The notes: a model not told the origin generated them from the sequence alone. Counted from the first letter of the stretch, positions 1 to 29,822 are shown. The stretch is 64,000 nt of DNA from an uncultured Bacilli bacterium (GCA_910584255.1 CAJTXV010000005.1:5700-69699); one strand, 5' to 3'. Translations and numbers: made by a program.

Positions 1-3000
1 AATAAAACATATTCCTTACATACAGGAGATAATGACATTATTCTTAGTGTTACAAGTGAAGCTGGAACGACTAAAAACTATAAAGTACGAGTTGTTCGTG
101 ATCAATCGGACAATGATGATTTGAGTTTCCTTTATGTAGAAGAAGGTGGCCTTCTACCAATGTTTAACGAAACTACAATTTTCTATGAAGTGAAGGTTCC
201 CAATCGCATTACAGATTTAAATCAACTTCATATTGAAGCAATTACGGAAGATACTAATGCAACTTTTGAGATTTTAGGACAAAGTGGAGCTTTAGTAGTT
301 GGAACTCCACGAGAGGTGATTGTTAGAGTAACTGCAGAAGATAGAGTTCATACCAAAGATTATACACTTTCGATTACAAGGCAAGAGGCAATAGAAGAAA
401 ATCTAGCTTTATTAAAACTAGAAACAAATAGAGGAGAACTTACACCGACTTTTAATTCAGATACTTTAAATTATACTTTAGAAGTAGAAAATCATATTTC
501 TGATATTATAGTAACAGCAGAAGCCCTCAGTGACAGTGTAACTGTGATTGGAACAGGAAAATATAATTTAAAAGTTGGAAAGAATGGAATTAGTGTTTTT
601 GTTATTGGAAGTGATGGAGTACAAAGAGATTATCAAATCGTTGTTACCAGAAAGAAATCGAGTGATGCAACATTAAGTAGTTTGGTAGTAAAAAGTCATA
701 TTCTAAGTCCAACATTTAATAAGAATACAAAAAACTATACTTTAAAGACAAGTTTAAACGAACTTACATTTACAACAATTACTCCAACAGAAAGTGAATC
801 TACTTATGTAATTAGTGGAAATGAAAACTTTCAAACCGGAGAAAATATAGTAACTATCGAAGTCACTGCACCAGATGGAGAAACGAAAAAGACTTATACT
901 TTGACTGTTACAAAAGAGGGAAGTAAAAATAACAATCTTAAATCATTAGAAGTCGAGGGCTATGTAATTCGACCAGTATTTCATAAGGGAGTTACTTTCT
1001 ATGCAGTAGAAGTAGAAAATAATGTAAATAGTGTTATGATTAAAGCGAGCGCAGAAGATAACAATGCGATTATTACAGGGGATGGATTAAAGACAATTTC
1101 TACTGGTGAAAATTACTTTGATATTATTGTCCAAAGTGAAGCTGGTACTAAGAAAACATACCGTGTCTTAGTAACAAAAGAAGCAAGTGATAATAACTAT
1201 CTAGCAAGTTTAAATGTTAGCGAAGGAGTTTTAAAGCAAACTCTAACAGAAAGTGAAACTTTTGATAAAACAGTGAATAAATACAAAGTGACGGTTCCTT
1301 ATACAGTAGATGAAATTACAGTGGTTGGTTCCCTAGAGGATGAAAATGCAACTGTTGGTGGATTCCAAGCTTATTCTTTAAACTATGGAAAAAATACGAT
1401 TTCAATTACAGTAACGAGTGAATCAGGAGTTGTTAATGTTTATGAAATTGAGGTAACGAGAGAAGAATCAATTAGTCCTTACTTAACGGATTTAAAAGTA
1501 AAAGATTATTCATTCGATAATCCATTTGAAAAATATTTATTTGAATATTCTATTAATGTAGATAATGAAATCGATTCTTTTGACAAATTACAATTAATCT
1601 ATCAGACAGAAGATAAGAATGCGACTGTAAAAATTACAGATGGCAATACTTATCAATGTAATGATACGATGTGTAGTGATTTTAAATTTGTAGTTGGAAT
1701 GAATGAAGTTCATATCGAAGTAACTGCAAGTGATGGAAGTTTGAATCAAGAATATATCCTCTACGTAAATCGATCGATGTCTACCAATAATTATTTAGAT
1801 AGTCTAACGGTAAATCGGGGTACATTAGATCCTATATTTAAACCTGAGACGTTGACTTACCATGTAGAAGTGGAAAGAGAAGTAGATAAGATTACAATTG
1901 GCGCTACGACACAAGATAGTCAATCAACGATTATATCAGGAATAGGAGAGCATACCTTAGCTTTAGGGGAAAATACCATTCTAATTAAAGTAAAATCATC
2001 GATTGGAATCACAAGAGCTTATCAAGTAATAGTAAATCGTAAAAAATCAGAGAATAATTACTTAACATATTTAGGTGTATTAAAGTCGAATGTTCCAATG
2101 AACTTTGAAGAGACTTTTGTGAAAACAACGAGTGATTATCATTTAACAGTTAGTAGTGATACAAGTATTATAGAAATTAAGGCAACGTTAGAAGATAGCA
2201 ATGCAACTGTAAGTGGTCATGGTTTAAAATTGTTAAATCAAGGATTAAACACATTTCCAGTCAAGGTTACTTCAGAGAGTGGTCAAGAGAATACCTATAC
2301 AATTTATATTACAAAAGAAGTATCAAGTAATAACTATTTAAGTAGTTTAATTCCAAGTGTTGGAACTTTAGACCCAGTATTCAATAAGGAACAAACAAGT
2401 TATACATTACACCTTACAAATAATCAAACAGAACTTGGATTTACTGTAACAAAAGAGGATTCAAATGCTACAGTTACGGGTAGTGAGAGCCAGTCTGTAC
2501 CAGAGGGTACTAGTAAACGGTCTATTACGGTAACAGCAGAAGATGGAAATATTAAAACGTATGAAATTACAGTAATTCGAGAAACAGCGAGTGAAGTAAG
2601 ACTAGACCGATTAGAGGTTTTGGGATATCCATTTGAATTTAATCCAAATACATTTGAGTATACACTTTCTGTATCAAAGTCAAAGAAGAAATTACTAGCA
2701 AGTGAGATTACTGCGATACCAAAAGATAAGGATGCAACCGTGAACTTGATGGGAGACTTGAATCTAGTGGATGGCTCAACTAGTACATATATTGTAGAAG
2801 TGATTGCGAAAGATGGATATACAACCCAAGAATATAAGATTCATATTACAAGAGATAGCCTAGAATATACGATTCGAAGTGATATTTATACGATTGATAG
2901 AAATGAGACAGAGGATTATGTAATCGGAATGGATCCGAAAACGAAGAAGACTGACTTTATTGGAAACTTCTTAAATGATCCATCTACCCTTCATGTATAT

Positions 3001-3303
3001 GGAAGTGATGGAGTAGGAATTACGGAAGAAGATAAATTCATAGGAAGCTACATGGTAATCAAACTAGAAATTGATGGATTTGTTTACGATGAACTAGTGA
3101 TCACTGTTCGAGGAGATTTAAATGGAGATGGCTTAGTAACCGCAGCTGATAACATTCAAGCGAAGAACTATGTCTTGGGAAAGAAACAAGTCAATTTCTT
3201 AGTTACAAAAATCGTTGATATCAATCAAGATGGATTAGTGACTGCACCAGATGTCATTCGAATTAAAAACTATATCTTAGGAAAAAGAGGACTCAATGAG
3301 TGA
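1..3303 (+). CDS. Large cell-surface protein with >=11 tandem ~80-aa cadherin-like beta-sandwich repeats and a C-terminal type-I dockerin (two Ca-binding repeats). The 5' end lies outside the window; the reading frame is open from position 1.
   Basis: ORF 121..3303 continues in-frame to nt 1 (NKTYSLHTGDNDIILSVTSEAGTTKNYKVRVVRDQSDNDD...). The repeated module is NNYLxSLxVxxGxLxPxFxxxxxxYxxxVxxxxxxIxIxAxxEDxNAxVxGxGxxxLxxGxNxIxIxVTSExGxxxxYxIxVxR. The C-terminus carries DLNGDGLVTAADNIQAKNYVLGK and DINQDGLVTAPDVIRIKNYILGK, which match the canonical dockerin duplicated F-hand. Confidence 0.8.
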   Translation, partial: NKTYSLHTGDNDIILSVTSEAGTTKNYKVRVVRDQSDNDDLSFLYVEEGGLLPMFNETTIFYEVKVPNRITDLNQLHIEAITEDTNATFEILGQSGALVVGTPREVIVRVTAEDRVHTKDYTLSITRQEAIEENLALLKLETNRGELTPTFNSDTLNYTLEVENHISDIIVTAEALSDSVTVIGTGKYNLKVGKNGISVFVIGSDGVQRDYQIVVTRKKSSDATLSSLVVKSHILSPTFNKNTKNYTLKTSLNELTFTTITPTESESTYVISGNENFQTGENIVTIEVTAPDGETKKTYTLTVTKEGSKNNNLKSLEVEGYVIRPVFHKGVTFYAVEVENNVNSVMIKASAEDNNAIITGDGLKTISTGENYFDIIVQSEAGTKKTYRVLVTKEASDNNYLASLNVSEGVLKQTLTESETFDKTVNKYKVTVPYTVDEITVVGSLEDENATVGGFQAYSLNYGKNTISITVTSESGVVNVYEIEVTREESISPYLTDLKVKDYSFDNPFEKYLFEYSINVDNEIDSFDKLQLIYQTEDKNATVKITDGNTYQCNDTMCSDFKFVVGMNEVHIEVTASDGSLNQEYILYVNRSMSTNNYLDSLTVNRGTLDPIFKPETLTYHVEVEREVDKITIGATTQDSQSTIISGIGEHTLALGENTILIKVKSSIGITRAYQVIVNRKKSENNYLTYLGVLKSNVPMNFEETFVKTTSDYHLTVSSDTSIIEIKATLEDSNATVSGHGLKLLNQGLNTFPVKVTSESGQENTYTIYITKEVSSNNYLSSLIPSVGTLDPVFNKEQTSYTLHLTNNQTELGFTVTKEDSNATVTGSESQSVPEGTSKRSITVTAEDGNIKTYEITVIRETASEVRLDRLEVLGYPFEFNPNTFEYTLSVSKSKKKLLASEITAIPKDKDATVNLMGDLNLVDGSTSTYIVEVIAKDGYTTQEYKIHITRDSLEYTIRSDIYTIDRNETEDYVIGMDPKTKKTDFIGNFLNDPSTLHVYGSDGVGITEEDKFIGSYMVIKLEIDGFVYDELVITVRGDLNGDGLVTAADNIQAKNYVLGKKQVNFLVTKIVDINQDGLVTAPDVIRIKNYILGKRGLNE

Positions 3304-3320
3304 AACTTGAGTTCTTTTTA
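3289..3320 (+). terminator. Weak rho-independent terminator after the cadherin/dockerin gene
   Basis: Inverted repeat actcaa-N10-ttgagt followed by TCTTTTT immediately after the stop codon at 3301-3303. Confidence 0.4.
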
Positions 3321-3417
3321 AGTGTTTATTAGTCAAAAAAAGTAAATTATTTGTAAATATTCGTAAATTTCTCTTTTTTAGCTATTAAAGATTGTATAAT
3401 AAAAATAAGGTGATTAT

Positions 3418-4326
3418 ATGAAAAATAAAGTTGTTTTAATTGGATGTGGAAACGTTGGAATGAGTTATGCATATGCATTACTCAATCAGCATACCTATGT
3501 AGATGAGCTAATACTAATTGATCTCAATAAAGAAAAAATAAAAGGGGAAGCTATGGATTTGAATCATTGTCTTGCCTATAGTCCTACAAAAGTAAAAGTA
3601 AAAGTGGGTGAATACTCTGATTGTCAGGATGCAAAAATTGTAGTGATTGCAGCAGGAAGTAATCAAGAAGTTGGAGAAACAAGGATGGATTTAATTCATA
3701 AAAACAGTGGTATCTTTCAAAATATTGTATCCAATGTTATGAAATCTTCTTTTGATGGAATCTTTTTAGTTGCCACGAATCCTTTAGATGTCATGACCTA
3801 TCTAACACTGAAGTATTCTAATCTTCCTGCAAATAGGGTTATTGGTTCTGGAACTACTTTGGATACTGCGAGGCTTCGCTATCTAATTAGTGAAAAAATA
3901 AATATATGCCCAAAAGATATTGAAGCCTATGTAATTGGAGAACATGGGGATAGCGAATTTGTTTGTTGGAGTAATGCAGGTATTGCTTTAACTAAGATTG
4001 ATACATTTTTAACGAAAGAGGACCAAAAGATATTAGAAGAAGAGGTTAAAAATTCTGCCAATGAAATTATTAAAAGAAAGGGTGCGACTTATTATGGAAT
4101 CGGTATGTGCTTGGTGAGAATTACTTCTGCGATATTAGAGGATAAAAATATTATATTGCCTGTTTCTAGTTATGATCAAAAAAATGATGTTTGTATTTCA
4201 ACTCCAGCAGTAGTAAATAAAGATGGAGTCAAAGAAAAAATTTATATTCCATTGAATGAGGAAGAAACGGAAAAATTAACTGATTCTATTGCAATCATTA
4301 AAAAGGCAATTCAATCATTAGAATAG
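3418..4326 (+). CDS. ldh: L-lactate dehydrogenase (LDH/MDH family)
   Basis: N-terminal Rossmann motif VVLIGCGNVGMSYAYAL, the LDH motif IGEHGDSEF and a length of 302 aa. Preceded by an extended -10 TGTATAAT and an RBS. Confidence 0.8.
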   Translation: MKNKVVLIGCGNVGMSYAYALLNQHTYVDELILIDLNKEKIKGEAMDLNHCLAYSPTKVKVKVGEYSDCQDAKIVVIAAGSNQEVGETRMDLIHKNSGIFQNIVSNVMKSSFDGIFLVATNPLDVMTYLTLKYSNLPANRVIGSGTTLDTARLRYLISEKINICPKDIEAYVIGEHGDSEFVCWSNAGIALTKIDTFLTKEDQKILEEEVKNSANEIIKRKGATYYGIGMCLVRITSAILEDKNIILPVSSYDQKNDVCISTPAVVNKDGVKEKIYIPLNEEETEKLTDSIAIIKKAIQSLE

Positions 4327-4404
4327 AATTTCCTCTTTACAGATTATTAGTTCAATATATATACAATTATGTTATTATAGACTCGTTTCTTCTTTTGTAT
4401 TCAT

Positions 4405-4434
4405 TTGTTTACCTTGAAAACTTTCAAAGCAAAT
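4405..4434 (+). promoter_or_regulatory. Sigma-A-like promoter (TTGAAA-17-TATACT) upstream of the pilin-like gene pair
   Basis: Sequence ttgaaaactttcaaagcaaatgatatact lies 37 nt upstream of the 4471 start. Confidence 0.35.
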
Positions 4435-4470
4435 GATATACTAGACGTATGTAGAATGGGGACTTAAATT

Positions 4471-4947
4471 ATGGAGAAAATAAACAAAAAAGCTTTTACA
4501 TTAATTGAATTACTGACAGTAATGGTGCTTCTTTCTATTTTGTTAGGAATTGCTGTTCCAGCATATTATATCCATATCCAAAGAAGTCAAAAGGGTGCCT
4601 ATCAATCGGCTGAAAAAGCTTTAACTACTTCTGCAATGGATGCTATGTTAGATTGTGTGAATAATCGTGGTAGGGAATTTTGTAAAAATAAGCGTCTTCC
4701 TCAATCTGATAATGAGTATATTAGAATAACACTTGGTGATTTAATTAAGGGTACTTATATGGATCCAATTCATGATCCTAAGGATAGAAGTAAATATTGT
4801 AGTGAGCAAAACTCTTATGCTTATATTTTAAAAAATCCAGAAGAAGAAAAAGGTGGGTATACCTATTATGCTTGTCTAGTATGCGGTAATTATGTAAGTG
4901 AAGATTGTGACCGAGAAGAATTAGGAGATATGGTAGAAATCGAATGA
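4471..4947 (+). CDS. Prepilin-type N-terminal cleavage/methylation-domain protein (type IV pilin or pseudopilin-like)
   Basis: MEKINKKA|FTLIELLTVMVLLSILLGIAVPAYY: class III signal peptide with Glu at +5 and a hydrophobic alpha-1 helix, 158 aa. The C-terminal Cys motif YTYYACLVCGNYVSEDCD is shared with the next gene. Confidence 0.7.
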   Translation: MEKINKKAFTLIELLTVMVLLSILLGIAVPAYYIHIQRSQKGAYQSAEKALTTSAMDAMLDCVNNRGREFCKNKRLPQSDNEYIRITLGDLIKGTYMDPIHDPKDRSKYCSEQNSYAYILKNPEEEKGGYTYYACLVCGNYVSEDCDREELGDMVEIE

Positions 4948-4975
4948 TGAAAGATTACTAGATGGAGGAAAAAGT

Positions 4976-7786
4976 ATGGGAAATAAAAAGGGCTTTACTT
5001 TAGTCGAATTATTAGCTACTTTGGTCATTTTGGGAATCTTATTGGGACTTGCAGTACCAGCAGTCGGTGGATATCTAACGAAGGGGAAAATATCCTATTA
5101 TCGCGGTTTAGAAACTGATTTTTTAGCAGCGGGAAAGGATTATTTATTGGATTACAGGAGTTTATTACCAAGAGAGGTGAATGCTTCTACCGTTGTTACC
5201 TTAGATGAATTAGTAAAAAATAATTATATTGATGAAGTAAAAGATGAAGATGGAAAGTTATGTGATGGAACTGTCACTGTTATAAAAAAAGGAAAAAGTA
5301 GTTATGATTATTTAGTTTGTCTTACCTGTGGAAAGAAATATAAATCTGATATTAAGAATTGTGAATATGTAGGTAGTAACGGAAATGCTAGAAATTATGC
5401 AATCCACTTAAATGGACAGCTTCCTACTGCTGTAAATCAGGGAGATTTTGTTAGTATTCCAACGGCACAGGTAGTAGAAGAAACGGCAAATGGAACGAGA
5501 ATTATTGATGACCGATTGGAAGGAACTCCCAAGTCTATCGATACTACAGTACTTGGTACTACTACTATCAGTTGGGCTTATCGTGCAGATAGAATTACAA
5601 AATCGATTCGTGTCGTTGATTCTGTTGCACCTGTGATTGATTCTTTTTATTTATCTTATGTAAGTGCTGCCAATTATGAGGGGACAATTACGAATAAAGG
5701 GTTATCAATTCGTCTAAGTGCGAGAGATTATGCTTGTGTTATAGGAAGTGACTGTAGAAGGCGCTATCCCAATTTAGAGGGTAGTGGGATTCAGGCTGTC
5801 TATTATAAAGAAAAAAATGCAACCAAATGGAATATATATAATACAAATCGCACCAATATTACCATTCCAATTGAAGAAAGCTTATGGGGTGAAATAGAAG
5901 TAAAGGTAGTAGATGCAAGTAACAATTCTAGTGCTGTTCAAACCGTTCCAATTCAAATGGATATAGAACCACCTTCTAAAACAACCGTTGATTATTTAAA
6001 AGGAGAAAGTACAAGTAAATGGCAAAATGATATTTCTATAAAATTAAATGCTAAGGATGATATAGGAATACGATATTATGAAATTTATAAGGATGGATTC
6101 TTTTATGCTAATACTGATGAATCATGGATACCACCGAATAATTTTAGTAGTGATAATGTCACATTTCGGGCGATAGATTTTGCTGGAAATAAAGGAGAAT
6201 TTTCAGATAAACAGAAAATTCATAGGGATACTGAAAATCCAGATATTCCAACAGTTAATTTAAATGGTTATACATCAGGAGTTTGGACGGGACATGATAT
6301 ACGGTTAAGTTTTAGTGCGTCCGACAATGGAAGCATTGATTATTATGAGTATAAAGATTCTAATGAAGCAGTAGAGGGAATAAAAATTAGTAATCCATGG
6401 GATTTTACGCAAGATGGGCTTTGGACCATTTATATTCGCGCAGTCGATGTAGCAGGTAATAAAAGTGGCTGGTCGGATGGATATGATATATGGTTAGATA
6501 AAACACCACCGCAAATTCCAAGAGTTACTTATCTAAGCGGAATTAGTTCTTCTTCTTGGCAAGGAAATGTGAAAATTCAATTAGATGCGAGTGATAATCA
6601 TGGGCTTAAATATTATGAAATTTATAAAGATGGTGTTTTTTATGGTACTACAGGAAATATATGGGTTCCTCCAGATGGTTTTAGTAGTAATCAAGTTACA
6701 TTTAAATCCGTTGATATTGTGGGAAATAAAAGTGAAGCATCTGTAGTACATAAAATTCATGTGAACTCGTCTCAACCGACTTTATCGGGATTATATTGGG
6801 GTGAAGTTACGAATCGATTGGCTCCTTTATATATTAAAATTATGGATTCTTCTTCTGGAATTAATCGTATTGAGTGTCAAACTGCTACGACTTCAGGGGG
6901 ATATAATAATTGGCATACCTTTCATGCTGTTTGGGATGCAGGTGAAAATGCATATCGATGTGATATTACCCCTTCTACATTTGGTCATTACAATCAAAAC
7001 TACTTAACTAATATCTACGTTTATGATAATGTTGGAAATGGTGGCTATTACAGTCAGCAATCCGTAATGATTCCATCGAATTCTTATAAACTATCTAATG
7101 TTGCGAGACCAGGAGATTATGTGACTTATCGCACTTTTAATGATTCTTATACAAGTTCTAGGGAAGATAATGGTATTCAAGATCAGACAATTACTCCTTC
7201 AGACTATCACGGAACTTGGCAAGTTTTATATAATGATGGAAATTATGGATTACAGATTGTAAGTTCCGAAGTAACTGCAAATTTATCAGTATATGGATAT
7301 GCTGGTATGAATAATATTTATAACACATTAAACGAAATATCTTCTGCCTATATGGATGGTGTTTATGCAACTTCTGCTCGTCATATTGGTACCAATCCAT
7401 CGAATCCCAATGACTCGTCTAGTATGTGTACTTTTGAAGACCAAGAAGTAAAATGTTGGGAGCAAAGTGTCTATCTTACAGATTTAAATGCATTAAAAAA
7501 TGCTAGAAGCCAGAATTCAAATGGAATTGCTTCAACGAGCGGGGAATACTTTTTTATTAGTCGACAAAAGTATGCTTGTAATGAGGGAGGTATCGGTGGA
7601 GAAAACTGTTATTGCTTGACCGATTCTAGAGATTTAAGTGGAAACACCTGGAGTGCGAGATGTCTAGTGGTTTATCCAGACCAAAAAGAAGTAACGAGTG
7701 GAATTCGGCCAGTTATTCGATTAAACAGTGAAACCGTAGTACTTGGAAGCGGTACTTTACAAGACCCCTATGTAATTCAATATTAA
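4976..7786 (+). CDS. Giant modular type-IV-pilin-like protein (936 aa): N-terminal pilin domain plus ~790 aa of Ig-like or beta-rich repeat domains
   Basis: MGNKKG|FTLVELLATLVILGILLGLAVPA is a canonical prepilin leader with Gly at -1 and Glu at +5. The conserved motif SYDYLVCLTCGKKYKSDIKNCE is paralogous to the 4471 gene. Internal ~90-aa repeats: ...KWQNDISIKLNAKDDIGIRYYEIYKDGFFYANTDESWIPPNNFSSDNVTFRAIDFAGNKGEFS and ...SWQGNVKIQLDASDNHGLKYYEIYKDGVFYGTTGNIWVPPDGFSSNQVTFKSVDIVGNKSEAS. Confidence 0.65.
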   Translation: MGNKKGFTLVELLATLVILGILLGLAVPAVGGYLTKGKISYYRGLETDFLAAGKDYLLDYRSLLPREVNASTVVTLDELVKNNYIDEVKDEDGKLCDGTVTVIKKGKSSYDYLVCLTCGKKYKSDIKNCEYVGSNGNARNYAIHLNGQLPTAVNQGDFVSIPTAQVVEETANGTRIIDDRLEGTPKSIDTTVLGTTTISWAYRADRITKSIRVVDSVAPVIDSFYLSYVSAANYEGTITNKGLSIRLSARDYACVIGSDCRRRYPNLEGSGIQAVYYKEKNATKWNIYNTNRTNITIPIEESLWGEIEVKVVDASNNSSAVQTVPIQMDIEPPSKTTVDYLKGESTSKWQNDISIKLNAKDDIGIRYYEIYKDGFFYANTDESWIPPNNFSSDNVTFRAIDFAGNKGEFSDKQKIHRDTENPDIPTVNLNGYTSGVWTGHDIRLSFSASDNGSIDYYEYKDSNEAVEGIKISNPWDFTQDGLWTIYIRAVDVAGNKSGWSDGYDIWLDKTPPQIPRVTYLSGISSSSWQGNVKIQLDASDNHGLKYYEIYKDGVFYGTTGNIWVPPDGFSSNQVTFKSVDIVGNKSEASVVHKIHVNSSQPTLSGLYWGEVTNRLAPLYIKIMDSSSGINRIECQTATTSGGYNNWHTFHAVWDAGENAYRCDITPSTFGHYNQNYLTNIYVYDNVGNGGYYSQQSVMIPSNSYKLSNVARPGDYVTYRTFNDSYTSSREDNGIQDQTITPSDYHGTWQVLYNDGNYGLQIVSSEVTANLSVYGYAGMNNIYNTLNEISSAYMDGVYATSARHIGTNPSNPNDSSSMCTFEDQEVKCWEQSVYLTDLNALKNARSQNSNGIASTSGEYFFISRQKYACNEGGIGGENCYCLTDSRDLSGNTWSARCLVVYPDQKEVTSGIRPVIRLNSETVVLGSGTLQDPYVIQY

Positions 7787-7812
7787 ACTGTGTGAAATCA
7801 CAGTTTTTTTCT
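7786..7812 (+). terminator. Rho-independent terminator after the pilin-like genes
   Basis: aactgtg-tgaaat-cacagtt followed by TTTTTTT, overlapping the stop codon at 7784-7786. Confidence 0.6.
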
Positions 7813-7846
7813 TTTAAAATTTCTTTCAAATCAAATATTTAAAAAA

Positions 7847-7874
7847 TTAGCACTCATATATTGACAATTGCTAA
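7847..7874 (+). promoter_or_regulatory. CIRCE-like element (imperfect second half-site)
   Basis: TTAGCACTC-atatattga-cAATTGCTAA compared with the consensus TTAGCACTC-N9-GAGTGCTAA. It overlaps the -35 box. Confidence 0.4.
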
Positions 7875-7889
7875 TCATAATAATATAAT
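7861..7889 (+). promoter_or_regulatory. Consensus sigma-A promoter (TTGACA-17-TATAAT) for the hrcA-grpE-dnaK operon
   Basis: ttgaca at 7861-7866, a 17-bp spacer and tataat at 7884-7889. It is sandwiched between two CIRCE elements. Confidence 0.6.
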
Positions 7890-7893
7890 GATA

Positions 7894-7920
7894 TTAGCAC
7901 TTGAAGTATTTTAGTGCTAG
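7894..7920 (+). promoter_or_regulatory. CIRCE operator (HrcA binding site)
   Basis: TTAGCACTt-gaagtattt-tAGTGCTAg is a near-perfect 9-N9-9 inverted repeat located between the -10 box and the hrcA RBS (GGAGG at 7921). Confidence 0.7.
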
Positions 7921-7929
7921 GAGGTATTT

Positions 7930-8917
7930 ATGCTTACTAAGAGACAGAAGGAAATATTAAAATTAATTGTCCTTAATTACATTCAATTAGCGAAGCCAGT
8001 TGGTTCTAAATTACTTTGCAAAAAGTTGAACTGTTCTAGTGCTACCATACGAAGTGAAATGGCCACTTTGGAAGAATTAAATCTTTTAGAAAAAACACAT
8101 ACCTCATCAGGACGAGTACCAAGTGAAAAAGGGTATCGATATTATGTTGATTATTTGATGAACCCAAAAGAAATCAATGGCGAAGATATGCTGAAACTGC
8201 AGATTATCTTTAAGAATAATGAATTAGAGTTGAGTGATTGCCTGAATCAAAGTTTAAAACTAATTTCAGAAATGACTTCCTACACTTCCATTGTACTTGG
8301 AAAAACAAGTCATGATAATCATTTAAAAGAAGTGAATGTTGTTCCTTTAGATAGTTCTGAAATGATTGCTATCGTCATTACTGATAAAGGACATGTAGAA
8401 CATAAAAAGGTTTCTTTTAAAAACGTTTCTATGGAAGAAATTAAAAGAGCAGTGACACTCATTAATGATTTGATTGTTGGAACACCCATTGATGAGGTAA
8501 GTAGTAAGCTTGAATTTGAAGTAAAACCAATTATTGACCGTTATGTGAAGGAACATGAACTTGTTTATAATACCTTTTATCAAGTGTTTCAAGATTTTTC
8601 CAATAAAAATATCAATGTCGTTGGAAGAAATAATATTTTAAAGCAACCAGAGTTCAATAGTGTAGATAAAATTAAAAATATTTTTGGAAAACTAGATGAT
8701 GCAGCACTACTCAATAATATTGAAACAGATAATAATGATATCAAAGTATATATCGGGAAAGAAAACAAATTAGACGAAGATGTCACCATTGTTCAGACCA
8801 AATATCGTACACCGTCTCAGGAAGGAACCATTGCCATTGTGGGTCCAAAACGAATGGATTATGAGAGAGTTGTTTCACTTCTCGAATTCATTAAGCAAAA
8901 TATAGAAGATAAGGAAG

Positions 8918-8934
<17 letters not shown>
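7930..8934 (+). CDS. hrcA: Heat-inducible transcription repressor HrcA
   Basis: 334 aa with an N-terminal winged-helix (LTKRQKEILKLIVLNYIQLAKPVGSKLL). It is the first gene of the dnaK operon and is preceded by CIRCE. Confidence 0.9.
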
Positions 8935-11379
<2,445 letters not shown>

Positions 11380-11391
11380 ATGGGAAAGTCA

Positions 11392-11422
11392 AACTAAGTT
11401 CTAGTAAATCTAGAACTTAGTT
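11392..11422 (+). terminator. Hairpin terminator downstream of dnaK
   Basis: Perfect 13-bp stem aactaagttctag-taaat-ctagaacttagtt located 13 nt after the dnaK stop. It separates dnaK from pepF-dnaJ. Confidence 0.6.
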
Positions 11423-11672
11423 GCTTATTATAATTTTTATTTATTCATAGGAGAGTAGTATCACCTTTCAAGAAAAAATTTTAGCTATCAAAACATTAAA
11501 GAGATTTAAAAAAAGTATTGTTAGTGTAAATCCAAATCAATCATCTTGAGATTATTTGTATTTAGGTATTGTACCAACACATATATATATACAAGGTCTC
11601 AAGTAGCTAAACGTGATAAGAAATTATTAAAAAGCTTAAAAAGAAAAAAATAAAATAATCAGGGAGAAACGA

Positions 11673-13466
11673 ATGAAAAAAGAAAAATTACGCAGTGAAC
11701 AAGAAAAAGAATTTACTTGGGATTTAGAAGCAGTTTATAAAGATGCAAAAGAATATCAAAAAGATTATGAAAATGTTACATCATTTATTGAAGAATTAGC
11801 ATCATATCAAGGAAATCTACTAAAGGATAGTAGTCATTTAATTGATTTTTTAGAGAAAAGCGAACAGGCAGAACGTTTAATTTGTAAGTTAGGTACTTAT
11901 GCAATTCGAAAATATGATGAGGATATTTCTAATGTTCAAAGTCAAACTCTATCTGGTAAATTTAATCAATTGGAAGCTAGTTATTCTGAAAAGACTGCTT
12001 TTTTTACCCCAGAACTTTTAGAAGCAGATTTTTCTGTAATTGAAAAAATGATTCAGGAGAATCCAAAGCTAGGGGAATATCGTTTGTTATTTCAAAGGAT
12101 TTTTAGAAATCAACCATATACTTTATCTAAGAATGAGGAAAAGCTACTATCTTCTTTACAAGTTGCTTTATCTAATAGTCAAAAAGTTGCAGGAATTATT
12201 CGTAATTCAGAACTGCAATTTGGAACAATTCTAGATGAAGAAAATGAAGAAGTAAAATTAAATAATGAGAACTACTTAATTTATTGTAAGAGTCAGGATC
12301 GTAGGGTTAGAAAAGATGCATTTATGACTATATATCATTCATATGAAAAATACAAAGAAACTCTAACAGAAACATTAAAAGGTCATATTGCGGCTGTTTC
12401 TACGATCAATAGGATGCGTGGTTTTAAAAATAGTAAAGAAGCAAGACTATTCTATAATCGTGTGTCTCCAAAGGTATATGATAATCTAATTCAAACCGTT
12501 CATAAGAAAATGGATGTTATGTATCGTTATGTTGATTTAAAAAAGAAAGTGTTAAATATTAAGGATTTTTCTTTATATGATACGTATGTCAATTTAGAAC
12601 CAGGGTTAGCTAAAAAATATAGTTTTGAAGAGGCAAAGGAAATTGTTTTAGACGTTGTAAAAGTATTTGGTGATGACTATGTTTCAACGATTCAAAAAGC
12701 CTTTGATGAAAGATGGATTGATGTTTATCCAAATAAGGGAAAACGTGGTGGTGCATATTCTGCAGGAAGTTATGACACTGCTCCTTATGTGCTTTTAAAT
12801 TTCCAAGGAAACTACCACGATGTATCTACTCTTGCGCATGAGCTAGGTCATTCTATGCATACGTATTATTCTAATAAATATAATTCCTATAATTATAGTG
12901 ATTATAAAATTTTTGTTGCGGAAGTGGCTTCTACTGTGAATGAAATGTTATTAAATTATTATATGTTAGATCACTTAGAAGATAAAAAAGAAAAACGAGT
13001 GATTATTAGTGAAATGATGGATTTATTTAAATCAACCATTTATCGTCAAACTATGTTTAGCGAATTTGAAGAGTTTGCTTTTGATACGTATGAAAAAACT
13101 GGAGTTTTAACAAACCAAACTCTTTGTGATCAATATTATGAATTAAATAAAGAATACTTTGGTTCAAATGTAATCATCAATGATGAAATTCGTTATGAAT
13201 GGGAGAGAGTTCCACATTTTTACTACAATTTCTATGTATATCAGTATGCAACTGGTTTATCTGCAGCATGTTATATTGTAAATAGAATTAAAAATAAAGA
13301 AAAAAATGCAGTAGAAGATTATCTAAACTTCTTAAAAACAGGAGATTCTATGGATCCAGTAGAAGAACTAAAAGTAGCGGGTGTTGATATATTAGATAGT
13401 AAAGTAATAGAGAAAGCCCTTGATATGTTTAATGATTTAATTGATGAATATGAAAATTTATTATAG
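11673..13466 (+). CDS. pepF: Oligoendopeptidase F (M3B family zinc metallopeptidase)
   Basis: 597 aa with the HELGHSMH zinc-binding motif and PepF-like overall architecture. Confidence 0.85.
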   Translation: MKKEKLRSEQEKEFTWDLEAVYKDAKEYQKDYENVTSFIEELASYQGNLLKDSSHLIDFLEKSEQAERLICKLGTYAIRKYDEDISNVQSQTLSGKFNQLEASYSEKTAFFTPELLEADFSVIEKMIQENPKLGEYRLLFQRIFRNQPYTLSKNEEKLLSSLQVALSNSQKVAGIIRNSELQFGTILDEENEEVKLNNENYLIYCKSQDRRVRKDAFMTIYHSYEKYKETLTETLKGHIAAVSTINRMRGFKNSKEARLFYNRVSPKVYDNLIQTVHKKMDVMYRYVDLKKKVLNIKDFSLYDTYVNLEPGLAKKYSFEEAKEIVLDVVKVFGDDYVSTIQKAFDERWIDVYPNKGKRGGAYSAGSYDTAPYVLLNFQGNYHDVSTLAHELGHSMHTYYSNKYNSYNYSDYKIFVAEVASTVNEMLLNYYMLDHLEDKKEKRVIISEMMDLFKSTIYRQTMFSEFEEFAFDTYEKTGVLTNQTLCDQYYELNKEYFGSNVIINDEIRYEWERVPHFYYNFYVYQYATGLSAACYIVNRIKNKEKNAVEDYLNFLKTGDSMDPVEELKVAGVDILDSKVIEKALDMFNDLIDEYENLL

Positions 13467-13484: not shown

Positions 13485-14594
13485 ATGGAGAAACGTGATT
13501 ACTATGAAGTTTTAGGAGTCAGCAAGTCCGCTTCTCAAGATGAAATCAAATCAGCTTTTCGAAAACTAGCGAAACAATATCATCCAGATGTTAATAAAGA
13601 AGCAGGAGCCGAAGAAAAGTTTAAGGAAATTCAAGAGGCATATGCTGTTCTTTCGGACGAAGGAAAAAGAAAGCAATATGATCAATTTGGTCATGCAGCA
13701 TTCCAAGGTGGAGGTGCTGGTGGTGCCAGTGGCTTTGGAGGATTTGATTTTGGCGGGTTTGATTATGAGGATATTTTTGATAATATATTTGGAGGTTTTG
13801 GAGGCTTTGGTGGGCGTAGTAAAGGAAATGATTCGTTAATTCGAATGAAATTATCGTTCAAAGAGGCAATCTATGGAACCAAAAAAGAGATTGATATTGA
13901 TATTATTGATGAATGTGAAGAATGTGATGGAAAAGGTGGATTCAATGAATCTACTTGTGAGAAATGCCATGGAAGCGGTACGATTACGAGTGAACAAAGG
14001 ACTATCTTTGGTAGCTTTCTTTCAAAGACAACTTGTCCAAATTGTGGTGGTACAGGAAAATCCTATAAAAAGAAATGTACTCACTGTAATGGGAATGGTC
14101 GTGTAAAAGTCAAGAAAACTTTAGAAGTCAAAGTCCCTGCTGGGGTTGATAACGGAAATAGACTTCGCTTGTCTGGAAAAGGTTCTGCTGGTGCGAATGG
14201 AGGACCAAATGGTGACTTATATATCGAATTTAGCGTTTCTGAACATGATTTTTACATTCGTGACGGGGATGATATTTACTTAGAAACTCCTATTACAATA
14301 GTAGAAGCAATTTTAGGAGCAAAAAAAGAAATTCCAACTTTGTATGGGAATGTAGTTCTGACTATTCCAGAAGGTAGTGAATCAGGAGATAAACATCGTA
14401 TTAAGGGAAAAGGTGTACATAATGAATCTACTAAAAGAAAAGGTGATATGTACATTGTATTAAAAGTAATTACTCCAAAGAAACTTACGAAAGAGCAAAA
14501 AAGAATTATTGAATCCTTAAGGGAAACTGATTTAGTAGACAACGAAATGAAAAAGTTTGATCGTTTTGTAGAAGTAAACAATGAAAGCATTTAA
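13485..14594 (+). CDS. dnaJ: Co-chaperone DnaJ (Hsp40)
   Basis: J-domain (DYYEVLGV...HPDVNK), a Gly/Phe-rich region and four CxxCxGxG zinc-finger repeats; 369 aa. Confidence 0.9.
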
Positions 14595-14610
14595 CAAAGT
14601 GCTTTTTTTC
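14580..14610 (+). terminator. Weak terminator after dnaJ
   Basis: aagcatttaacaaagtgcttttttt (imperfect stem plus T7) overlapping the dnaJ stop. Confidence 0.3.
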
Positions 14611-14727
14611 TTGCCAACTTTACATTCTAATCGTAAAAAGACTTGTCAAAATTTGTTTCAATAGGCTATACTTAAGATATAAGAAAATAAGCTTCATAGT
14701 AAGTCAGTTTGAAAGTGAGGAAGTAAT

Positions 14728-15171
14728 ATGGAAGTAAAATTTAGAATAGCAACAAGGGATGACATAAAAGAGATTATTGATTTATGTAACGTTGTGTTTA
14801 TTGAGGATACCCCTTACGAATATGCACTTAAGGTGTTTGAAGAAACGAAAGATGATCCAAATAATATTTATCTAGTAGGAATAGTAGATGATAAGATTGT
14901 ATCTCATGCTAAAATTACAGTGGTTCATACGATGTATGAAAAAATGAATACTTATGCGATTTTAAACCATGTTTGTGTTATGGAAGAATATCGTAGACAT
15001 AATATTGCCACTAAAATGTTAATGGAAATTGAGAAAATTTGTAAGGAACACGGGTGCAAAAAGATGGAATTATGGTCTAATAATATTCGAGTTCCAGCAC
15101 ATACTTGTTATAAAAAATACGGATTTCATTTAGATGATGCAGGCTTCTTTTCTATGAATGTAAGAGGATAA
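14728..15171 (+). CDS. GNAT-family N-acetyltransferase (copy 1)
   Basis: 147 aa. Acetyl-CoA-binding-like motif HVCVMEEYRRHNIATKMLMEIEKICKEHGCKKMEL. Promoter-like TTGTCA-18-TATACT upstream. Confidence 0.6.
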   Translation: MEVKFRIATRDDIKEIIDLCNVVFIEDTPYEYALKVFEETKDDPNNIYLVGIVDDKIVSHAKITVVHTMYEKMNTYAILNHVCVMEEYRRHNIATKMLMEIEKICKEHGCKKMELWSNNIRVPAHTCYKKYGFHLDDAGFFSMNVRG

Positions 15172-15176
15172 GAACT

Positions 15177-16358
15177 ATGAAAATTGAGAGAATATATATT
15201 GGTGGGTGGTTTCAACGTACTACCTTGCAACTATCTGAAATTTATGATTTTGTTCGTGATGGAACTTCACAATTAAAGTTAGACAAAAATAAACTTCAAA
15301 AAATGAGAACTGACTTAGATCTTGCCCACGTTGAGTACAATGTAGATGGACTGGAATATTTAATGCTTACTACAAATACAGAAATTCAAATTAAAATATT
15401 TGAAGATGGACTTATCGTTTTAAATGATGGGGATGTCAACGAATTTTCCTTATTTCAGGACATTGAGTCTTTGGCACAGTACTATGAGAAAAAGCTATCT
15501 CCAGCATTTTCCTATCTCTTTAGTTTAGGTGCTCCTGTTCCAAAGGAACTTGCTAATATTGAAACAGTATATCCTTACTTTATTGTTTTAAATAATGCCA
15601 AAGAGGCAGAAATGCAAGCACTTCTTAGTAGAACGGAAAAACAAAAATATTTTGATTACAAAAATCAACATTATGACGTGGTTCGTGGAAATAAATATTA
15701 TTTTATTAATAATAAAACAAAGGATATGCATCAAGTGGAACGTTATATTGAAGAACAGATTTTTATTCGTGAGTTTAAGGCACAACTTCATCGCTATTTA
15801 AATCTTCATCGCATTATTTGGGAGAAAATCGATGAAGTAAAAGAAAATTCTCATGTTCGAGGAAAGGATATTATTGCTTTCAGTAATAAGATTGATGGTT
15901 ATAGAAAAACGGTCAATTTGATTGATTCTCGAATTAATCAGATGAATACATATATCAAAACAAGAGAAAAAATTGCGAAGAGTGATTCTAATTTAATTGA
16001 ATCATTAGATTTAATTGGGTACCGCTATGAAACATTAATTAATACAGTAAGCTATATGCAACAAATTTGGGCAATGACAAAGAATTATTTGAATCAAGCA
16101 GCAAAATTATTCGATAGTTTGGAGTCATCTATTACTGAAAAATCAGTTAATAGTTTAACAATTGTTACCTCCATGGGTGTTGGTGCATCTTTAATTGATT
16201 TGTTTACAGAATCTGCACCATCTTTTTCATCTTTTGGAATTATTTATTTCTTTATTCTAGCAATTGTTGGGTACTCCGTAAATAAAATTATGAAAAAGAT
16301 ATCAGAAAATAGAAAATATGAAATTTCAGATATTGAGTACGATAAAAACATTAAATAG
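15177..16358 (+). CDS. Hypothetical protein with a large soluble N-terminal domain and a C-terminal transmembrane anchor (copy 1)
   Basis: 393 aa. C-terminal hydrophobic segments (SLTIVTSMGVGASLIDLF, FGIIYFFILAIVGYSV) followed by KIMKK. Sits 5 nt after the GNAT stop, in an operon-like arrangement with the ABC exporter. It possibly has Rmd1/YagE (DUF155)-like topology; this is an inference only. Confidence 0.5.
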   Translation: MKIERIYIGGWFQRTTLQLSEIYDFVRDGTSQLKLDKNKLQKMRTDLDLAHVEYNVDGLEYLMLTTNTEIQIKIFEDGLIVLNDGDVNEFSLFQDIESLAQYYEKKLSPAFSYLFSLGAPVPKELANIETVYPYFIVLNNAKEAEMQALLSRTEKQKYFDYKNQHYDVVRGNKYYFINNKTKDMHQVERYIEEQIFIREFKAQLHRYLNLHRIIWEKIDEVKENSHVRGKDIIAFSNKIDGYRKTVNLIDSRINQMNTYIKTREKIAKSDSNLIESLDLIGYRYETLINTVSYMQQIWAMTKNYLNQAAKLFDSLESSITEKSVNSLTIVTSMGVGASLIDLFTESAPSFSSFGIIYFFILAIVGYSVNKIMKKISENRKYEISDIEYDKNIK

Positions 16359-16403
16359 AAGAGGTTCTATCCAAAGAACTTCTTTTTCTAAAAGGAGGAT
16401 AAT

Positions 16404-18140
16404 ATGTTTCGAAATTATTTGAATATCTTTGATGATTTTCGAGTTATTACAAAAAAACAAAGTAAGAAATATGTTTTTCTAATGCTTATATCTTCTGCTT
16501 TTCATCATATTTTTAGTTTACTCCCACCAATTGCTGCTGCAGGAATCATTGCAATGGTTACAGAAGAGAATATGAACTTAGTTTTCTTTTATGGTTGTCT
16601 GTTTTTATTCTTTTATTTTCTATATTTCTTCGCATTATATTGGAAATATTTTTCCTATAAAAAATTAGGAGAGATGTATCATACAGAGATTCAGGATTAT
16701 TTATTTGAAATTATCGCATCCAATGATGATATTCTAACAAAGATTTCAAAAGGGAAAATCATGGATGTTTGTAATACAGATATTGGTTATACTGTAGATG
16801 TGGTAGATGCCTTTATTGGTGCGATTATGAATTTAATCAAAATCATTATTTTATTTTTTATCTTTCTTCACTATAGTATTCTAGTCGGTTCCCTAGTAGT
16901 CGTTTTAGTTATCTTTTATTTTCTTTTAATGGACTCTAATTCTTTAGCGGTTTCTAAGTGCTATGAAGGAGAAAGAAAGTATGACGATAAAGTCATTGAT
17001 ATTTTAAATCAGATGCTTGCAAATCTAAAGCAAGTAAAAACATTGAATTTAATGACTAATCTTAATAAAAAACTATGGAAAACCAGGGGTTGTTGGAAAG
17101 AAAAATATACAAAAAGAAGAAATTATTTAATTAAAAGATATAGTATTTTACCTGTTATTTTGTACTTTACAAAATTTGTGTTATACATGATTTTGGCATC
17201 CATGGTAATTAGAAAACAAATGACTTTGGATAAACTTGTTTTATTAATTAGTTATTTTGAAGCTATTGTAACTGCAACAGATCAGACATTAGAGTACTTA
17301 CTCAATTTGAATAACTATAAAGTAAGAATGCAAAGAATTCGAAGTATTATCGATTATCCCCCACAAAAAGAATTTGATTTCGGCGACATTGATAATGATT
17401 ATATTTCAGGACTCATAGAATTCAAAAAGGTAAGTTATCAAGTAAAAGATGTGAAGGCATTAGATAATGTTAGTTTTAAGGTATATCCAAATGAGATTAA
17501 TGCAATTATCGGTCATTCTGGAAGTGGAAAGTCTACCATCATTCACTTGTTATATCGTCTTCATAAGGTTTCCTCTGGGATTATTTTAATTGATAATGTA
17601 AATATTTACGACTACACCAATCATGTTTATACATCCAATGTCTCAGGTGTTTATCAGAAACCATTTGTTTTTGATATGAGTATTCGTGATAATTTAAATT
17701 TAGTGAATTCAAATCGAAATCTTCAAATTGAAGCATGTAAAAGAGTAGGGATTCATGACTTTATCATGTCATTACCCAAAGGATATAATACGATTGTTAA
17801 TGAGGAAGATGCAATTGTTACTAGCGGTAAAAAGCAGCTATTGGCCATTGCACGAGCGTTGTTATCGAAAGCAGAAATCTTATTATTTGATGAAATTACA
17901 GGAAATGTTGATCCAGAAACTACCAATCAGATTCTTTCCATCTTGCTTGATTTAAAGGCTGACCACACCATTCTTATGGTAACACATAAACCTGAAATGA
18001 TGGAGATAGCCGATCGTGTGATTGTATTATCCAATGGAAAGGTAGAAAGCAAGGGCAAAAATAAAGATGTATACGAAAAATCTACTTTATATCAAGAACT
18101 TAAAAATCGTTCTTTTGTAAGTGTAAGTAAGGTAGAGTAG
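16404..18140 (+). CDS. ABC transporter, fused permease/ATP-binding protein (exporter type) (copy 1)
   Basis: 578 aa with N-terminal ~6 TM helices. Walker A GHSGSGKST, signature TSGKKQLLAIARAL and Walker B ILLFDEITGNVD. Confidence 0.85.
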   Translation: MFRNYLNIFDDFRVITKKQSKKYVFLMLISSAFHHIFSLLPPIAAAGIIAMVTEENMNLVFFYGCLFLFFYFLYFFALYWKYFSYKKLGEMYHTEIQDYLFEIIASNDDILTKISKGKIMDVCNTDIGYTVDVVDAFIGAIMNLIKIIILFFIFLHYSILVGSLVVVLVIFYFLLMDSNSLAVSKCYEGERKYDDKVIDILNQMLANLKQVKTLNLMTNLNKKLWKTRGCWKEKYTKRRNYLIKRYSILPVILYFTKFVLYMILASMVIRKQMTLDKLVLLISYFEAIVTATDQTLEYLLNLNNYKVRMQRIRSIIDYPPQKEFDFGDIDNDYISGLIEFKKVSYQVKDVKALDNVSFKVYPNEINAIIGHSGSGKSTIIHLLYRLHKVSSGIILIDNVNIYDYTNHVYTSNVSGVYQKPFVFDMSIRDNLNLVNSNRNLQIEACKRVGIHDFIMSLPKGYNTIVNEEDAIVTSGKKQLLAIARALLSKAEILLFDEITGNVDPETTNQILSILLDLKADHTILMVTHKPEMMEIADRVIVLSNGKVESKGKNKDVYEKSTLYQELKNRSFVSVSKVE

Positions 18141-18188
18141 TTCATAATAAAAGTTTGTTAGTCTAAATACCTATGCTTTCTAAAGTAC

Positions 18189-18216
18189 CAGCAAGAAATT
18201 TCTCTTGCTTTTTTTT
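18189..18216 (+). terminator. Rho-independent terminator after the ABC exporter (copy 1)
   Basis: gcaaga-aatttc-tcttgc followed by TTTTTTTT. Confidence 0.6.
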
Positions 18217-18259
18217 AAGATTTGTGCTATAATATGCTTACTTTTAAGGGGGGTTATGT

Positions 18260-19183: not shown

Positions 19184-19194
19184 GATTCCTTTTT

Positions 19195-20454: not shown

Positions 20455-20526
20455 TTATATTTTATCAAAAAAGAGTACTTTTTAAAAGAAATATGTTATA
20501 ATATAAAAGGATTGTAGGGAAGTAAT

Positions 20527-21423: not shown

Positions 21424-21426
21424 ATT

Positions 21427-22593: not shown

Positions 22594-22859
22594 TGAAAAA
22601 AATTGTATTTGTTTGCTTGGGAAATATTTGCAGAAGTCCCATGGCTGAAGCAATTATGAAAAAACTTTTAAAGGAACAAAAATTAGAGATGATTTTTCAA
22701 GTAGATTCAATGGCTACTAGTTTTGAGGAAGTAGGAAATCCTATTTATCCTCCTGCACGAGAAAAGCTAAAAGAGAGGGGCATTTTAGCTTTCACACATC
22801 AAGCAAAAGTTTTTAAAAAAGAAAACTACGATGAAAAGGTGATATGTACATTGTATTAA
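22590..22859 (+). pseudogene. Truncated low-molecular-weight protein-tyrosine phosphatase (first 77 codons) fused out-of-frame to the dnaJ tail at the duplication junction
   Basis: Identical to the intact copy 30986..31441 through ...KVFKKENYDE, then KVICTLY* from dnaJ-derived sequence. It has lost the C-terminal DPWY catalytic Asp loop. Confidence 0.7.
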
Positions 22860-22990
22860 AAGTAATTACTCCAAAGAAACTTACGAAAGAGCAAAAAAGA
22901 ATTATTGAATCCTTAAGGGAAACTGATTTAGTAGACAACGAAATGAAAAAGTTTGATCGTTTTGTAGAAGTAAACAATGAAAGCATTTAA
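22836..22990 (+). pseudogene. Promoterless duplicated 3' fragment of dnaJ (last ~50 codons)
   Basis: Sequence identical to 14440..14594 (…[50 protein letters not shown]). No start codon. Confidence 0.7.
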
Positions 22991-23123
22991 CAAAGTGCTT
23001 TTTTTCTTGCCAACTTTACATTCTAATCGTAAAAAGACTTGTCAAAATTTGTTTCAATAGGCTATACTTAAGATATAAGAAAATAAGCTTCATAGTAAGT
23101 CAGTTTGAAAGTGAGGAAGTAAT

Positions 23124-23567: not shown

Positions 23568-23572
23568 GAACT

Positions 23573-29819: not shown

Positions 29820-29822
29820 ATT

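Follow-up and report, generated by a model that had tools for sequence, protein, structure and literature searches.

An apparent two-gene operon for a small pilin-like protein and a large modular pilin with an immunoglobulin-like rod in an uncultured Bacilli bacterium

Two adjacent genes on the plus strand of a 64,000-nt stretch of DNA from an uncultured Bacilli bacterium (GCA_910584255.1 CAJTXV010000005.1:5700-69699; hereafter the window, meaning the whole stretch analysed) encode proteins with the N-terminus of type IV pilins. The listing of open reading frames (ORFs) gives two frames with ATG starts, one at 4471-4947 for a protein of 158 aa (the small protein) and one at 4976-7786 for a protein of 936 aa (the large protein). 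They are flanked by the L-lactate dehydrogenase gene ldh (3418-4326) and by hrcA (7930-8934), with which the gene order hrcA-grpE-dnaK-pepF-dnaJ begins at 7930. An earlier annotation of this DNA, the sequence-only reading, had named the same two ORFs and the same neighbours, and the listing agrees with it in every coordinate. The following features were found in and around the pair.

4414..4442, plus strand: promoter-like site of the small pilin gene, TTGAAA-17-TATACT with an upstream TG (extended -10); a consensus match only
About 4450, plus strand: GGGGA ribosome-binding site of the small pilin gene, read from the sequence
4471..4947, plus strand: small pilin-like gene, 158 aa
4963-4968, plus strand: GGAGGA ribosome-binding site of the large gene, read from the sequence
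4976..7786, plus strand: large modular pilin gene, 936 aa plus stop, separated by a 28-nt gap from the stop of the small gene
7785..7816, plus strand: intrinsic-terminator-like hairpin with an 8-bp stem plus a T-run, overlapping the stop codon of the large gene by 2 bases
7861-7889, plus strand: hrcA promoter, a perfect TTGACA-17-TATAAT (sigma-70-type)
7894-7919, plus strand: inverted repeat resembling CIRCE (controlling inverted repeat of chaperone expression), TTAGCACTT-N9-TAGTGCTA, located before hrcA and just 3' of its promoter; an ordinary heat-shock operator

Since hrcA has its own promoter and CIRCE-like repeat (7861-7919), the pilin pair lies outside the heat-shock operon. A promoter-like site of its own, closely placed ribosome-binding sites and the terminator-like hairpin suggest that the pair is an autonomous bicistronic unit, separate from both the ldh and the heat-shock units. 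Judged by these signals, the small and the large gene appear to form a self-contained operon that extends from promoter to terminator. The G+C content of the window is about 30%, and the region of the pair is unremarkable in composition.

Both proteins begin with a class III signal peptide that can be read directly from the translations, MEKINKKA/FTLIELL in the small and MGNKKG/FTLVELL in the large protein, where the slash marks the predicted cleavage site; in both, position +5 is Glu and position +22 is Pro. The predicted N-terminal peptides of the processed pair are FTLVELLATLVILGILLGLAVPAVGGYLTK and FTLIELLTVMVLLSILLGIAVPAYYIHIQR. The features of the two pilin modules are listed below.

4471-4494, plus strand (aa 1-8): leader of the small protein, MEKINKKA, with predicted cleavage between A8 and F9; Glu+5 is E13 and Pro+22 is P30
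Aa 1-6 of the large protein, plus strand: leader MGNKKG, with predicted cleavage between G6 and F7
4654-4683, plus strand: extra conserved Cys pair C62/C71 of the small protein, from the orthologue alignment
4798..4908, plus strand: Cys cluster in the head of the small protein, C110, C135-L-x-C138-G and C146; C110, C135 and C138 are invariant in 27 sequences
4976..5380, plus strand: pilin module of the large protein (leader, alpha1 helix and small beta head, to about aa 135), from PF07963/TIGR02532, AlphaFold2 and paralogy with the small pilin
5261-5362, plus strand: invariant Cys residues of the large protein, C96, C115-L-x-C118 and C129, from columns of the 28-sequence homologue alignment

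The class III signal peptides, already proposed in the sequence-only reading, were borne out by profile searches in which both proteins exceeded the cut-offs of two curated models, the Pfam family N_methyl PF07963 (30.5 bits for the small and 29.9 bits for the large protein, cut-off 21.2) and TIGR02532 (28.1 and 28.5 bits, cut-off 16.3). A regular expression for the prepilin motif, run against every six-frame ORF of the window, matched nothing but this pair of genes. The N-terminal residues are conserved in distant relatives. Among 28 homologues of the large protein, down to 32% identity, Thr+2, Leu+3 and Glu+5 are invariant and Phe+1 is nearly so, with Tyr in two rows. All four residues are invariant in an alignment of 27 pilin modules, taken from orthologues of the small protein and from the N-terminal parts of large relatives, with 25-82% identity to the first sequence, that of the small pilin. 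Glu+5 is of importance for filament assembly and methylation more than for membrane insertion (PMC4471445, PMC8727766), and its conservation therefore argues for interaction with the machinery of type IV filaments. The invariant Glu+5 may be regarded as the strongest internal argument for contact of the two proteins with an assembly apparatus.

The Ala at -1 of the small protein had been considered noteworthy in the sequence-only reading, an assessment that did not hold. In the relative L001 (63% identical) the small protein has Gly at -1 and the large protein Ala, the reverse of the arrangement in the window, and both residues are scattered among the orthologues of the small and of the large gene. 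The leader of pneumococcal Com pilins normally ends in Ala (PMC8727766). A recent description has the leader end with 'Gly or Ala' (PMC9934059), and an older review calls Gly invariant in bacteria (PMC4471445). Because Gly and Ala replace each other among orthologues and between the two genes, and because of the precedent of the Com pilins (PMC8727766), the idea of an anomaly was rejected.

The small protein aligns with residues 3-125 of the large protein (BLASTP, 32% identity over 141 aa, E = 3e-12), and the two are paralogues in the pilin module. Downstream of the helix both contain the Cys motif that had been described as shared. It is conserved in both, as claimed, and reads Y130-x-Y-x-x-C135-L-x-C138-G-x-Y-x-S-x-x-C146 in the small and Y110-x-Y-x-x-C115-L-x-C118-G-x-x-Y-x-S-x-x-x-x-C129 in the large protein; the match is not letter for letter, and the spacing after the Gly differs between the proteins. 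Invariant in the 27 modules are one Leu, the upstream Cys (C110 in the small, C96 in the large protein), a Tyr three residues before CLxC (Y132 and Y112) and CLxC itself. In a few rows the Gly that follows CLxC is replaced by Ser, Asn or another residue, and a fourth Cys, 8-11 residues after the CLxC turn, is usually present. CxxCG is the classic spelling of a zinc knuckle. The four conserved Cys residues of the head could form either a structural metal site of the Zn-knuckle-like CxxCG kind or two disulfides.

Structure prediction with AlphaFold2 (AF2) assigned to the small protein a 54-residue helix (residues 11-64) followed by four strands, which resembles the 'lollipop' topology of pilins, with a predicted local distance difference test (pLDDT) score of 88.3 and a predicted template modelling (pTM) score of 0.75. 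For the large protein, the AF2 model was built on the 28-sequence alignment. The prediction for 4976..7786, proposed earlier as a check, gave an N-terminal helix and a small sheet followed by a rod of immunoglobulin (Ig)-like domains; the regions of the model and the parts of the protein derived from it and from profile searches are as follows.

Aa 9-59 of the large protein: N-terminal helix (alpha1), pLDDT 64-81
Aa 71-118: small sheet, pLDDT 64-81
Aa 140-700: unbroken series of beta-sandwiches, pLDDT 85-95
Aa 704-936: C-terminal region, unreliable, pLDDT below 50
5387..7072, plus strand (aa 138-699): rod of about six beta-sandwich domains, resembling Ig or fibronectin type III (FnIII) domains, from AF2, Foldseek and Pfam/NCBIfam
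5972-6241, plus strand (aa 333-422): repeat R1, OmpL47-type
6242-6508, plus strand (aa 423-511): repeat R2, the middle copy, OmpL47-type
6509-6775, plus strand (aa 512-600): repeat R3, OmpL47-type
7073..7783, plus strand (aa 700-936): C-terminal head domain of 237 aa, an undescribed family, from the profile search

Two repeats of about 90 aa had been recognised in the sequence-only reading. BLASTP finds them at 49% identity (aa 333-422 against aa 512-600, E = 1e-32) and adds a third copy between them (aa 423-511; 34%, E = 5e-8). Three stretches, the best at aa 439-498, match the OmpL47-type beta-barrel domain NF047446 (49 bits, cut-off 40); the score of the large protein against the full-length Leptospira OmpL47 equivalog is 46.6, with a cut-off of 250. 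In the searches with hidden Markov models that had likewise been proposed, Big_7 joins N_methyl above the cut-off (27.1 bits, cut-off 24.1), and Big_3_2 falls just under it (22.5 bits, cut-off 23.3). A Foldseek search with the full-length model of the large protein gave nothing beyond generic tandem-Ig stalks, such as those of the GhpA grappling hook and SiiE, and FnIII arrays. The earlier estimate of about 790 aa of Ig-like sequence was correct for some 560 aa of beta-sandwich; the last 237 aa constitute a different, non-repeat domain. With a pilin N-terminus, Big_7, three OmpL47-type stretches and the 237-aa extra domain, the large protein is a modular pilin in the sense of Raynaud et al. 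2021 (PMC8179133).

The C-terminal domain has as landmarks W-Q-V-L-Y-N and G-[IV]-R-P-V-I-x-L...G-x-G-T-x-x-x-P-[YW], together with Y-x-[LFV]-[IV]-S-R in close relatives and YWLASR in the wider family. A profile search of a library of 1.84 billion proteins yielded 851 representative clusters at E <= 1e-3, including 239 at E <= 1e-10; a word-indexed homologue search with the domain alone yielded one match. Pfam gave no match to the domain, also among the 29 relatives scanned, and two profiles found no sequence relative in the PDB. A resemblance of the YWLASR...GVRPV ending to DUF6273 or C-type-lectin-like modules was considered; no search bore it out, and no such relationship is claimed. Because AF2 confidence lies below 50 over aa 704-936, the domain is not assigned a fold. 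Among its best 148 matches, 96 have a hydrophobic N-terminus and eight a pilin-type N-terminus, and N_methyl matches six of 29 short relatives at a lenient E <= 1. These N-termini point to a widespread extracellular module that has repeatedly been joined to pilin handles. In the large protein the C-terminal 237 aa are presumed to be an effector or binding module.

Homologues were detected for both proteins, 61 for the large and 12 for the small one, none of them informatively named. Intact full-length orthologues of the large protein (934-949 aa) occur in at least nine sequence clusters, and identical proteins are found in the metagenome-assembled genome (MAG) GCA_949949055.1 and in several metagenome assemblies. 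The matches in genome collections are all MAGs from animal and human guts, labelled as uncultured Bacilli, Bacillales, 'Tenericutes' (UMGS592) and Candidatus (Allo)scybalousia intestinigallinarum; the name 'Candidatus Scybalousia' is a homonym, and the chicken-gut taxon is listed by NCBI as 'Bacilli incertae sedis'. Across the family of the large protein the N-terminal 420 aa or so are kept and the C-terminal part is swapped for other modules, for example the glycine-rich PF12810, in keeping with the carrier-plus-effector principle of modular pilins (PMC8179133). Proteins of 600-1,492 aa whose C-termini are unrelated start with the CLxCG pilin module, always equally far from the N-terminus. 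Several genomes contain multiple copies: UMGS592 has four loci, and L024 and L037 have tandem pairs. The arrangement of a small and a large gene upstream of hrcA is kept where the large protein is 58-63% identical; more distant members do not have it. The pilin pair of the window is 56-63% identical to that of L001, and the flanking HrcA, GrpE, DnaK, PepF and DnaJ proteins are 74-95% identical; the pair thus diverges far faster than its housekeeping neighbours, which is the pattern of fast-evolving surface proteins.

On contig 8 of the MAG CANQHQ01 (L004/L016), four pilin-like genes encoding proteins of 168, 213, 201 and 760 aa lie within about 9 kb (locus 2983-12283), scattered among genes for a Mur ligase, an apurinic/apyrimidinic endonuclease and a penicillin-binding protein, with no assembly genes there. 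From this locus it would appear that the lineage is unusually rich in dispersed pilin-like genes. Nothing on pili or competence in RFN20/RF39 was found in the literature, and a paper on a 'conserved pilin' of TANB77 was rejected as a related case as it concerns a Tad-type cluster.

On balance we lean towards the view that the locus encodes a pair of a small pilin and a modular pilin, that a type IV filament system with its genes elsewhere processes and displays this pair, and that the Ig rod and the C-terminal head act in adhesion. Of the two possibilities raised in the sequence-only reading, a tip adhesin of a distantly encoded type IV pilus or Com system is favoured over a pilin-fold surface protein that is used differently. 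In the proposed mechanism the class III signal peptides would insert both proteins into the membrane, where a prepilin peptidase encoded elsewhere would cleave after Ala8 of the small and Gly6 of the large protein. The alpha1 helices would then enter a type IV filament, either a type IV pilus or a Com-type pilus. The 936-aa protein would be a minor, modular pilin, probably located at the tip, with the small pilin module as its handle, the six Ig-like domains as a rod roughly 20 nm or more in length and the 237-aa C-terminal domain as the ligand-binding head. The small paralogue, co-transcribed with the large one, may pair with it and stabilise it, as PilA does for PilC in Streptococcus sanguinis, the precedent for the stabilisation of a modular pilin by a small pilin (PMC9934059).

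Several observations weigh against this proposal, the first of which concerns the machinery. Assembly genes were sought in the window by inspection of the ORF translations, by motif scans and by Pfam searches of unassigned membrane ORFs, and in 44 related loci with flanks of up to +/-10 kb, about 0.6 Mb in total and including members that lie on contigs of 200-600 kb. The ORFs of the window include no T2SSE ATPase, no T2SSF platform protein and no A24 prepilin peptidase. Likewise, neither T2SSE/A24 motifs nor Pfam gene tables gave any sign of an ATPase, a platform protein or a prepilin peptidase in flanks of up to 10 kb on either side of the 44 loci, whose neighbours are always housekeeping genes. 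The lack of assembly genes nearby that had been remarked on for the window hence holds for the neighbourhoods of the whole set. Since all 44 loci share it, the orphan location is a trait of the family and says nothing about the rest of the genomes. In well-studied systems minor pilins are commonly encoded away from the assembly genes. The second observation is that the small partner is limited to the closest clade, in which the large protein is at least about 58% identical, so that it is no general requirement of the family. Thirdly, a protein at the tip of a pilus needs no long Ig rod; such a rod would better suit a membrane-anchored protein that has to cross the cell wall.

The main alternative is a surface adhesin that is anchored by its pilin module and does not polymerise. 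The class III signal peptide would be a means of export and anchoring, the processed protein would be held in the membrane by alpha1N, or in a very short pseudopilus, and the Ig rod would carry the head through the wall and past it, in a manner resembling the sugar-binding proteins of the Sulfolobus bindosome. Consistent with this explanation, the genes are orphans at every locus examined and occur in multiple copies per genome, and a rod of about six Ig domains fits the spanning of the wall better than display at a tip. Anchoring of this kind could even be a general route of surface display in a lineage said to be without sortases: srtA/B are reportedly missing from two related uncultured orders, RFN20 and ML615J-28 (PMC10868615), which would make a different way of display attractive. 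The 64-kb window showed neither a sortase nor an LPXTG motif, and other surface proteins there are anchored by transmembrane segments or a dockerin. The sortase argument is only suggestive, since the order-level taxonomy of the genome is not established and its link to these orders is unproven. Arguing against a non-polymerised protein are the invariant Glu+5, the short basic leader, the Gly/Ala cleavage site and Pro+22, which together constitute the signature of assembling pilins. To our knowledge, an adhesin with a non-polymerised pilin handle has no experimental precedent in bacteria. We consider this explanation possible, if doubtful.

In a broader and rather unlikely scenario, the stand-alone CLxCG-pilin genes would be a diversifying multigene family that serves as the main platform for the display of large adhesins in a group of uncultured, reduced-genome and possibly sortase-less gut Bacilli, binned as 'Tenericutes' or Bacilli. 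The pilin N-terminus would be an export and anchoring handle for interchangeable heads, equipped with a metal-binding pilin head and a small paralogous partner, and this might operate without a conventional long pilus.

Com pili are common in the class Bacilli, to which the organism belongs, and the pair might comprise accessory minor pilins of a Com-type (DNA-uptake) pilus, to which they would add a binding function, or of a pseudopilus like that of type II secretion systems. The alternation of Ala and Gly at -1 resembles that of streptococcal Com pilins (PMC8727766), and the best sub-threshold similarities in NCBIfam include ComGC, ComGD, ComGE, ComGF and GspG. All of these scores are far below the equivalog cut-offs: 27.3 and 21 bits for full-length ComGC (NF040999, cut-off 75), 12-21 bits for ComGD, ComGE and ComGF (among NF040982, NF041013 and NF041002, cut-offs 49-80), and, for the pseudopilins, 25.9 and 22.9 bits for GspG (TIGR01710, cut-off 88.85) and 19.9 and 18.5 bits for GspH (TIGR01708, cut-off 80). 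The matches to the Com and Gsp models are confined to the N-terminal helix; those to the Com models extend over the first 27-61 residues, in most cases less than 50. No com genes occur in any of the related loci fetched, and a 936-aa subunit with an Ig rod has no counterpart in known Com pili, which makes this explanation improbable. That the genes are decayed, or encode an ordinary signal-anchor protein with a merely pilin-like N-terminus, is in accord with the failure of Foldseek to find a similar solved pilin and is very unlikely in view of the conservation data, as both proteins pass two independent curated models, the residues for processing and assembly are kept down to 25-32% identity, and intact orthologues of full length persist in at least nine clusters.

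Other features of the window were noted in passing. Positions 1-3303 (plus strand) encode the last 1,060 aa of a giant surface protein, which is about 2,990 aa long in the matching contigs L009-L011 and has at least ten Cadherin-like beta-sandwich repeats and a C-terminal type I dockerin. In L010 the full-length protein also matches the glycine-rich PF12810, which is found as well at the C-terminus of the giant-pilin relatives P0012, P0015 and P0018; the common domain suggests an exchange of modules between surface proteins. At 53743-55002 (minus strand) lies the gene of a 419-aa Pro/Thr/Ser-rich protein with a central region that by eye resembles Big_2/Cadherin, a transmembrane segment near residue 300 and a long Lys/Glu-rich tail. 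Proteins with leucine-rich repeats (LRR) and N-terminal hydrophobic segments are encoded at 18260-19183, 26656-27579 and 41166-42140.

A perfect tandem direct duplication occupies 14437-22835 and 22833-31231 (8,399 nt, spacing 8,396 nt, 100% identity). The boundaries fall within the 3' end of dnaJ and within a gene for a low-molecular-weight phosphatase, with a junction microhomology of about 10 nt (GAAAAGGTGA), and the duplicated genes encode an acetyltransferase, an ABC transporter, an LRR protein, a RarA/MgsA homologue, a XerD-like recombinase and phosphopentomutase. Either the duplication happened very recently or it is an artefact of assembly. At about 31,500-32,400 GC skew and gene orientation flip, from plus-strand genes and positive skew on the left to minus-strand genes and negative skew on the right, as expected where replication forks converge; this is probably the replication terminus. 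A gene for a XerD-like recombinase and topoisomerase IV-like genes (44337-49320) are situated nearby. The stretch 58,000-64,000 (minus strand) is AT-rich (23-28% G+C), contains a large serine recombinase gene (62065-63207) and small ORFs, and probably represents a mobile element or what is left of a prophage.

Much of the functional versatility of type IV filaments is attributed to modular pilins, few of which have been studied, and these come almost exclusively from pilus operons of cultured pathogens. The family identified here shows the carrier-plus-effector design in abundant uncultured gut Bacilli, with an unusually long Ig rod and a conserved, possibly Zn-binding four-Cys pilin head, and its unannotated head domain is found again in about 850 protein clusters. 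Should this domain bind host or dietary glycans, it would provide a handle on the attachment of poorly known gut bacteria, and if the genomes prove to be without pilus assembly genes, the family would point to a use of pilin signals in bacteria that is independent of pili.

The closest studied analogue is found in S. sanguinis, where the modular pilins PilB (vWA) and PilC (lectin) occur together with the small partner PilA (PMC8179133, PMC9934059). Common to both are a monoderm host, a pilin module with a class III signal to which a C-terminal effector is grafted, a presumed function in adhesion at the tip, and a small non-modular pilin encoded beside the modular one; binding and stabilisation were observed in S. 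sanguinis. Unlike the stand-alone operon in the window, the genes of PilA, PilB and PilC are inside the locus of the pil machinery. PilB and PilC carry one extra module and no long rod, whereas in the large protein an uncharacterised head follows about six Ig-like domains, and the conserved four-Cys cluster in the pilin head distinguishes the window pair, whose sequence similarity to the S. sanguinis pilins stops at alpha1N. The modular pilins catalogued in InterPro, more than 1,200 proteins in 264 architectures, the largest cited one having 860 aa and 12 repeats (PMC8179133), similarly start with IPR012902/PF07963 and continue with domains foreign to type IV pilins that are sometimes repeated. 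The proteins described here are larger (936 aa, and up to 1,492 aa in relatives with the same pilin module), their head domain has no database signature, and the family is confined to MAGs of uncultured gut Bacilli. The large minor pilins of the type of CofB of enterotoxigenic Escherichia coli and TcpB of Vibrio cholerae also consist of a pilin module followed by beta-repeat and beta-sandwich domains, and are thought to be located at the tip and to mediate binding (PMC8179133). In a comparison by description they differ from the window pair in that they belong to type IVb systems of diderms, are encoded in the pilus operon and form trimers; CofB and TcpB were absent from the sequence matches in the PDB.

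With the Com pilins of Bacilli (ComGC-GG, NF040999) the pair shares a short basic leader ending in Ala or Gly, Phe+1, Glu+5 and the host class, unlike them in size (those have 86-137 aa), in location (comG operons) and in scores, which for the window proteins are far below the cut-offs. The Sulfolobus bindosome consists of large extracellular sugar- or solute-binding proteins with class III signals, which are encoded away from the assembly genes and rely on a dedicated Bas assembly system. It resembles the window pair in combining large extracellular proteins, pilin-type signals and genes remote from those for assembly, and differs from it in being archaeal, in having no Ig rod and in its Bas system. 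Modular pilins have been described since 2021, and the locus in the window represents a new, unannotated family within this known kind, distinguished by a four-Cys pilin head, a long Ig rod, an undescribed head domain, stand-alone operons and the swapping of modules among multiple copies in uncultured gut Bacilli.

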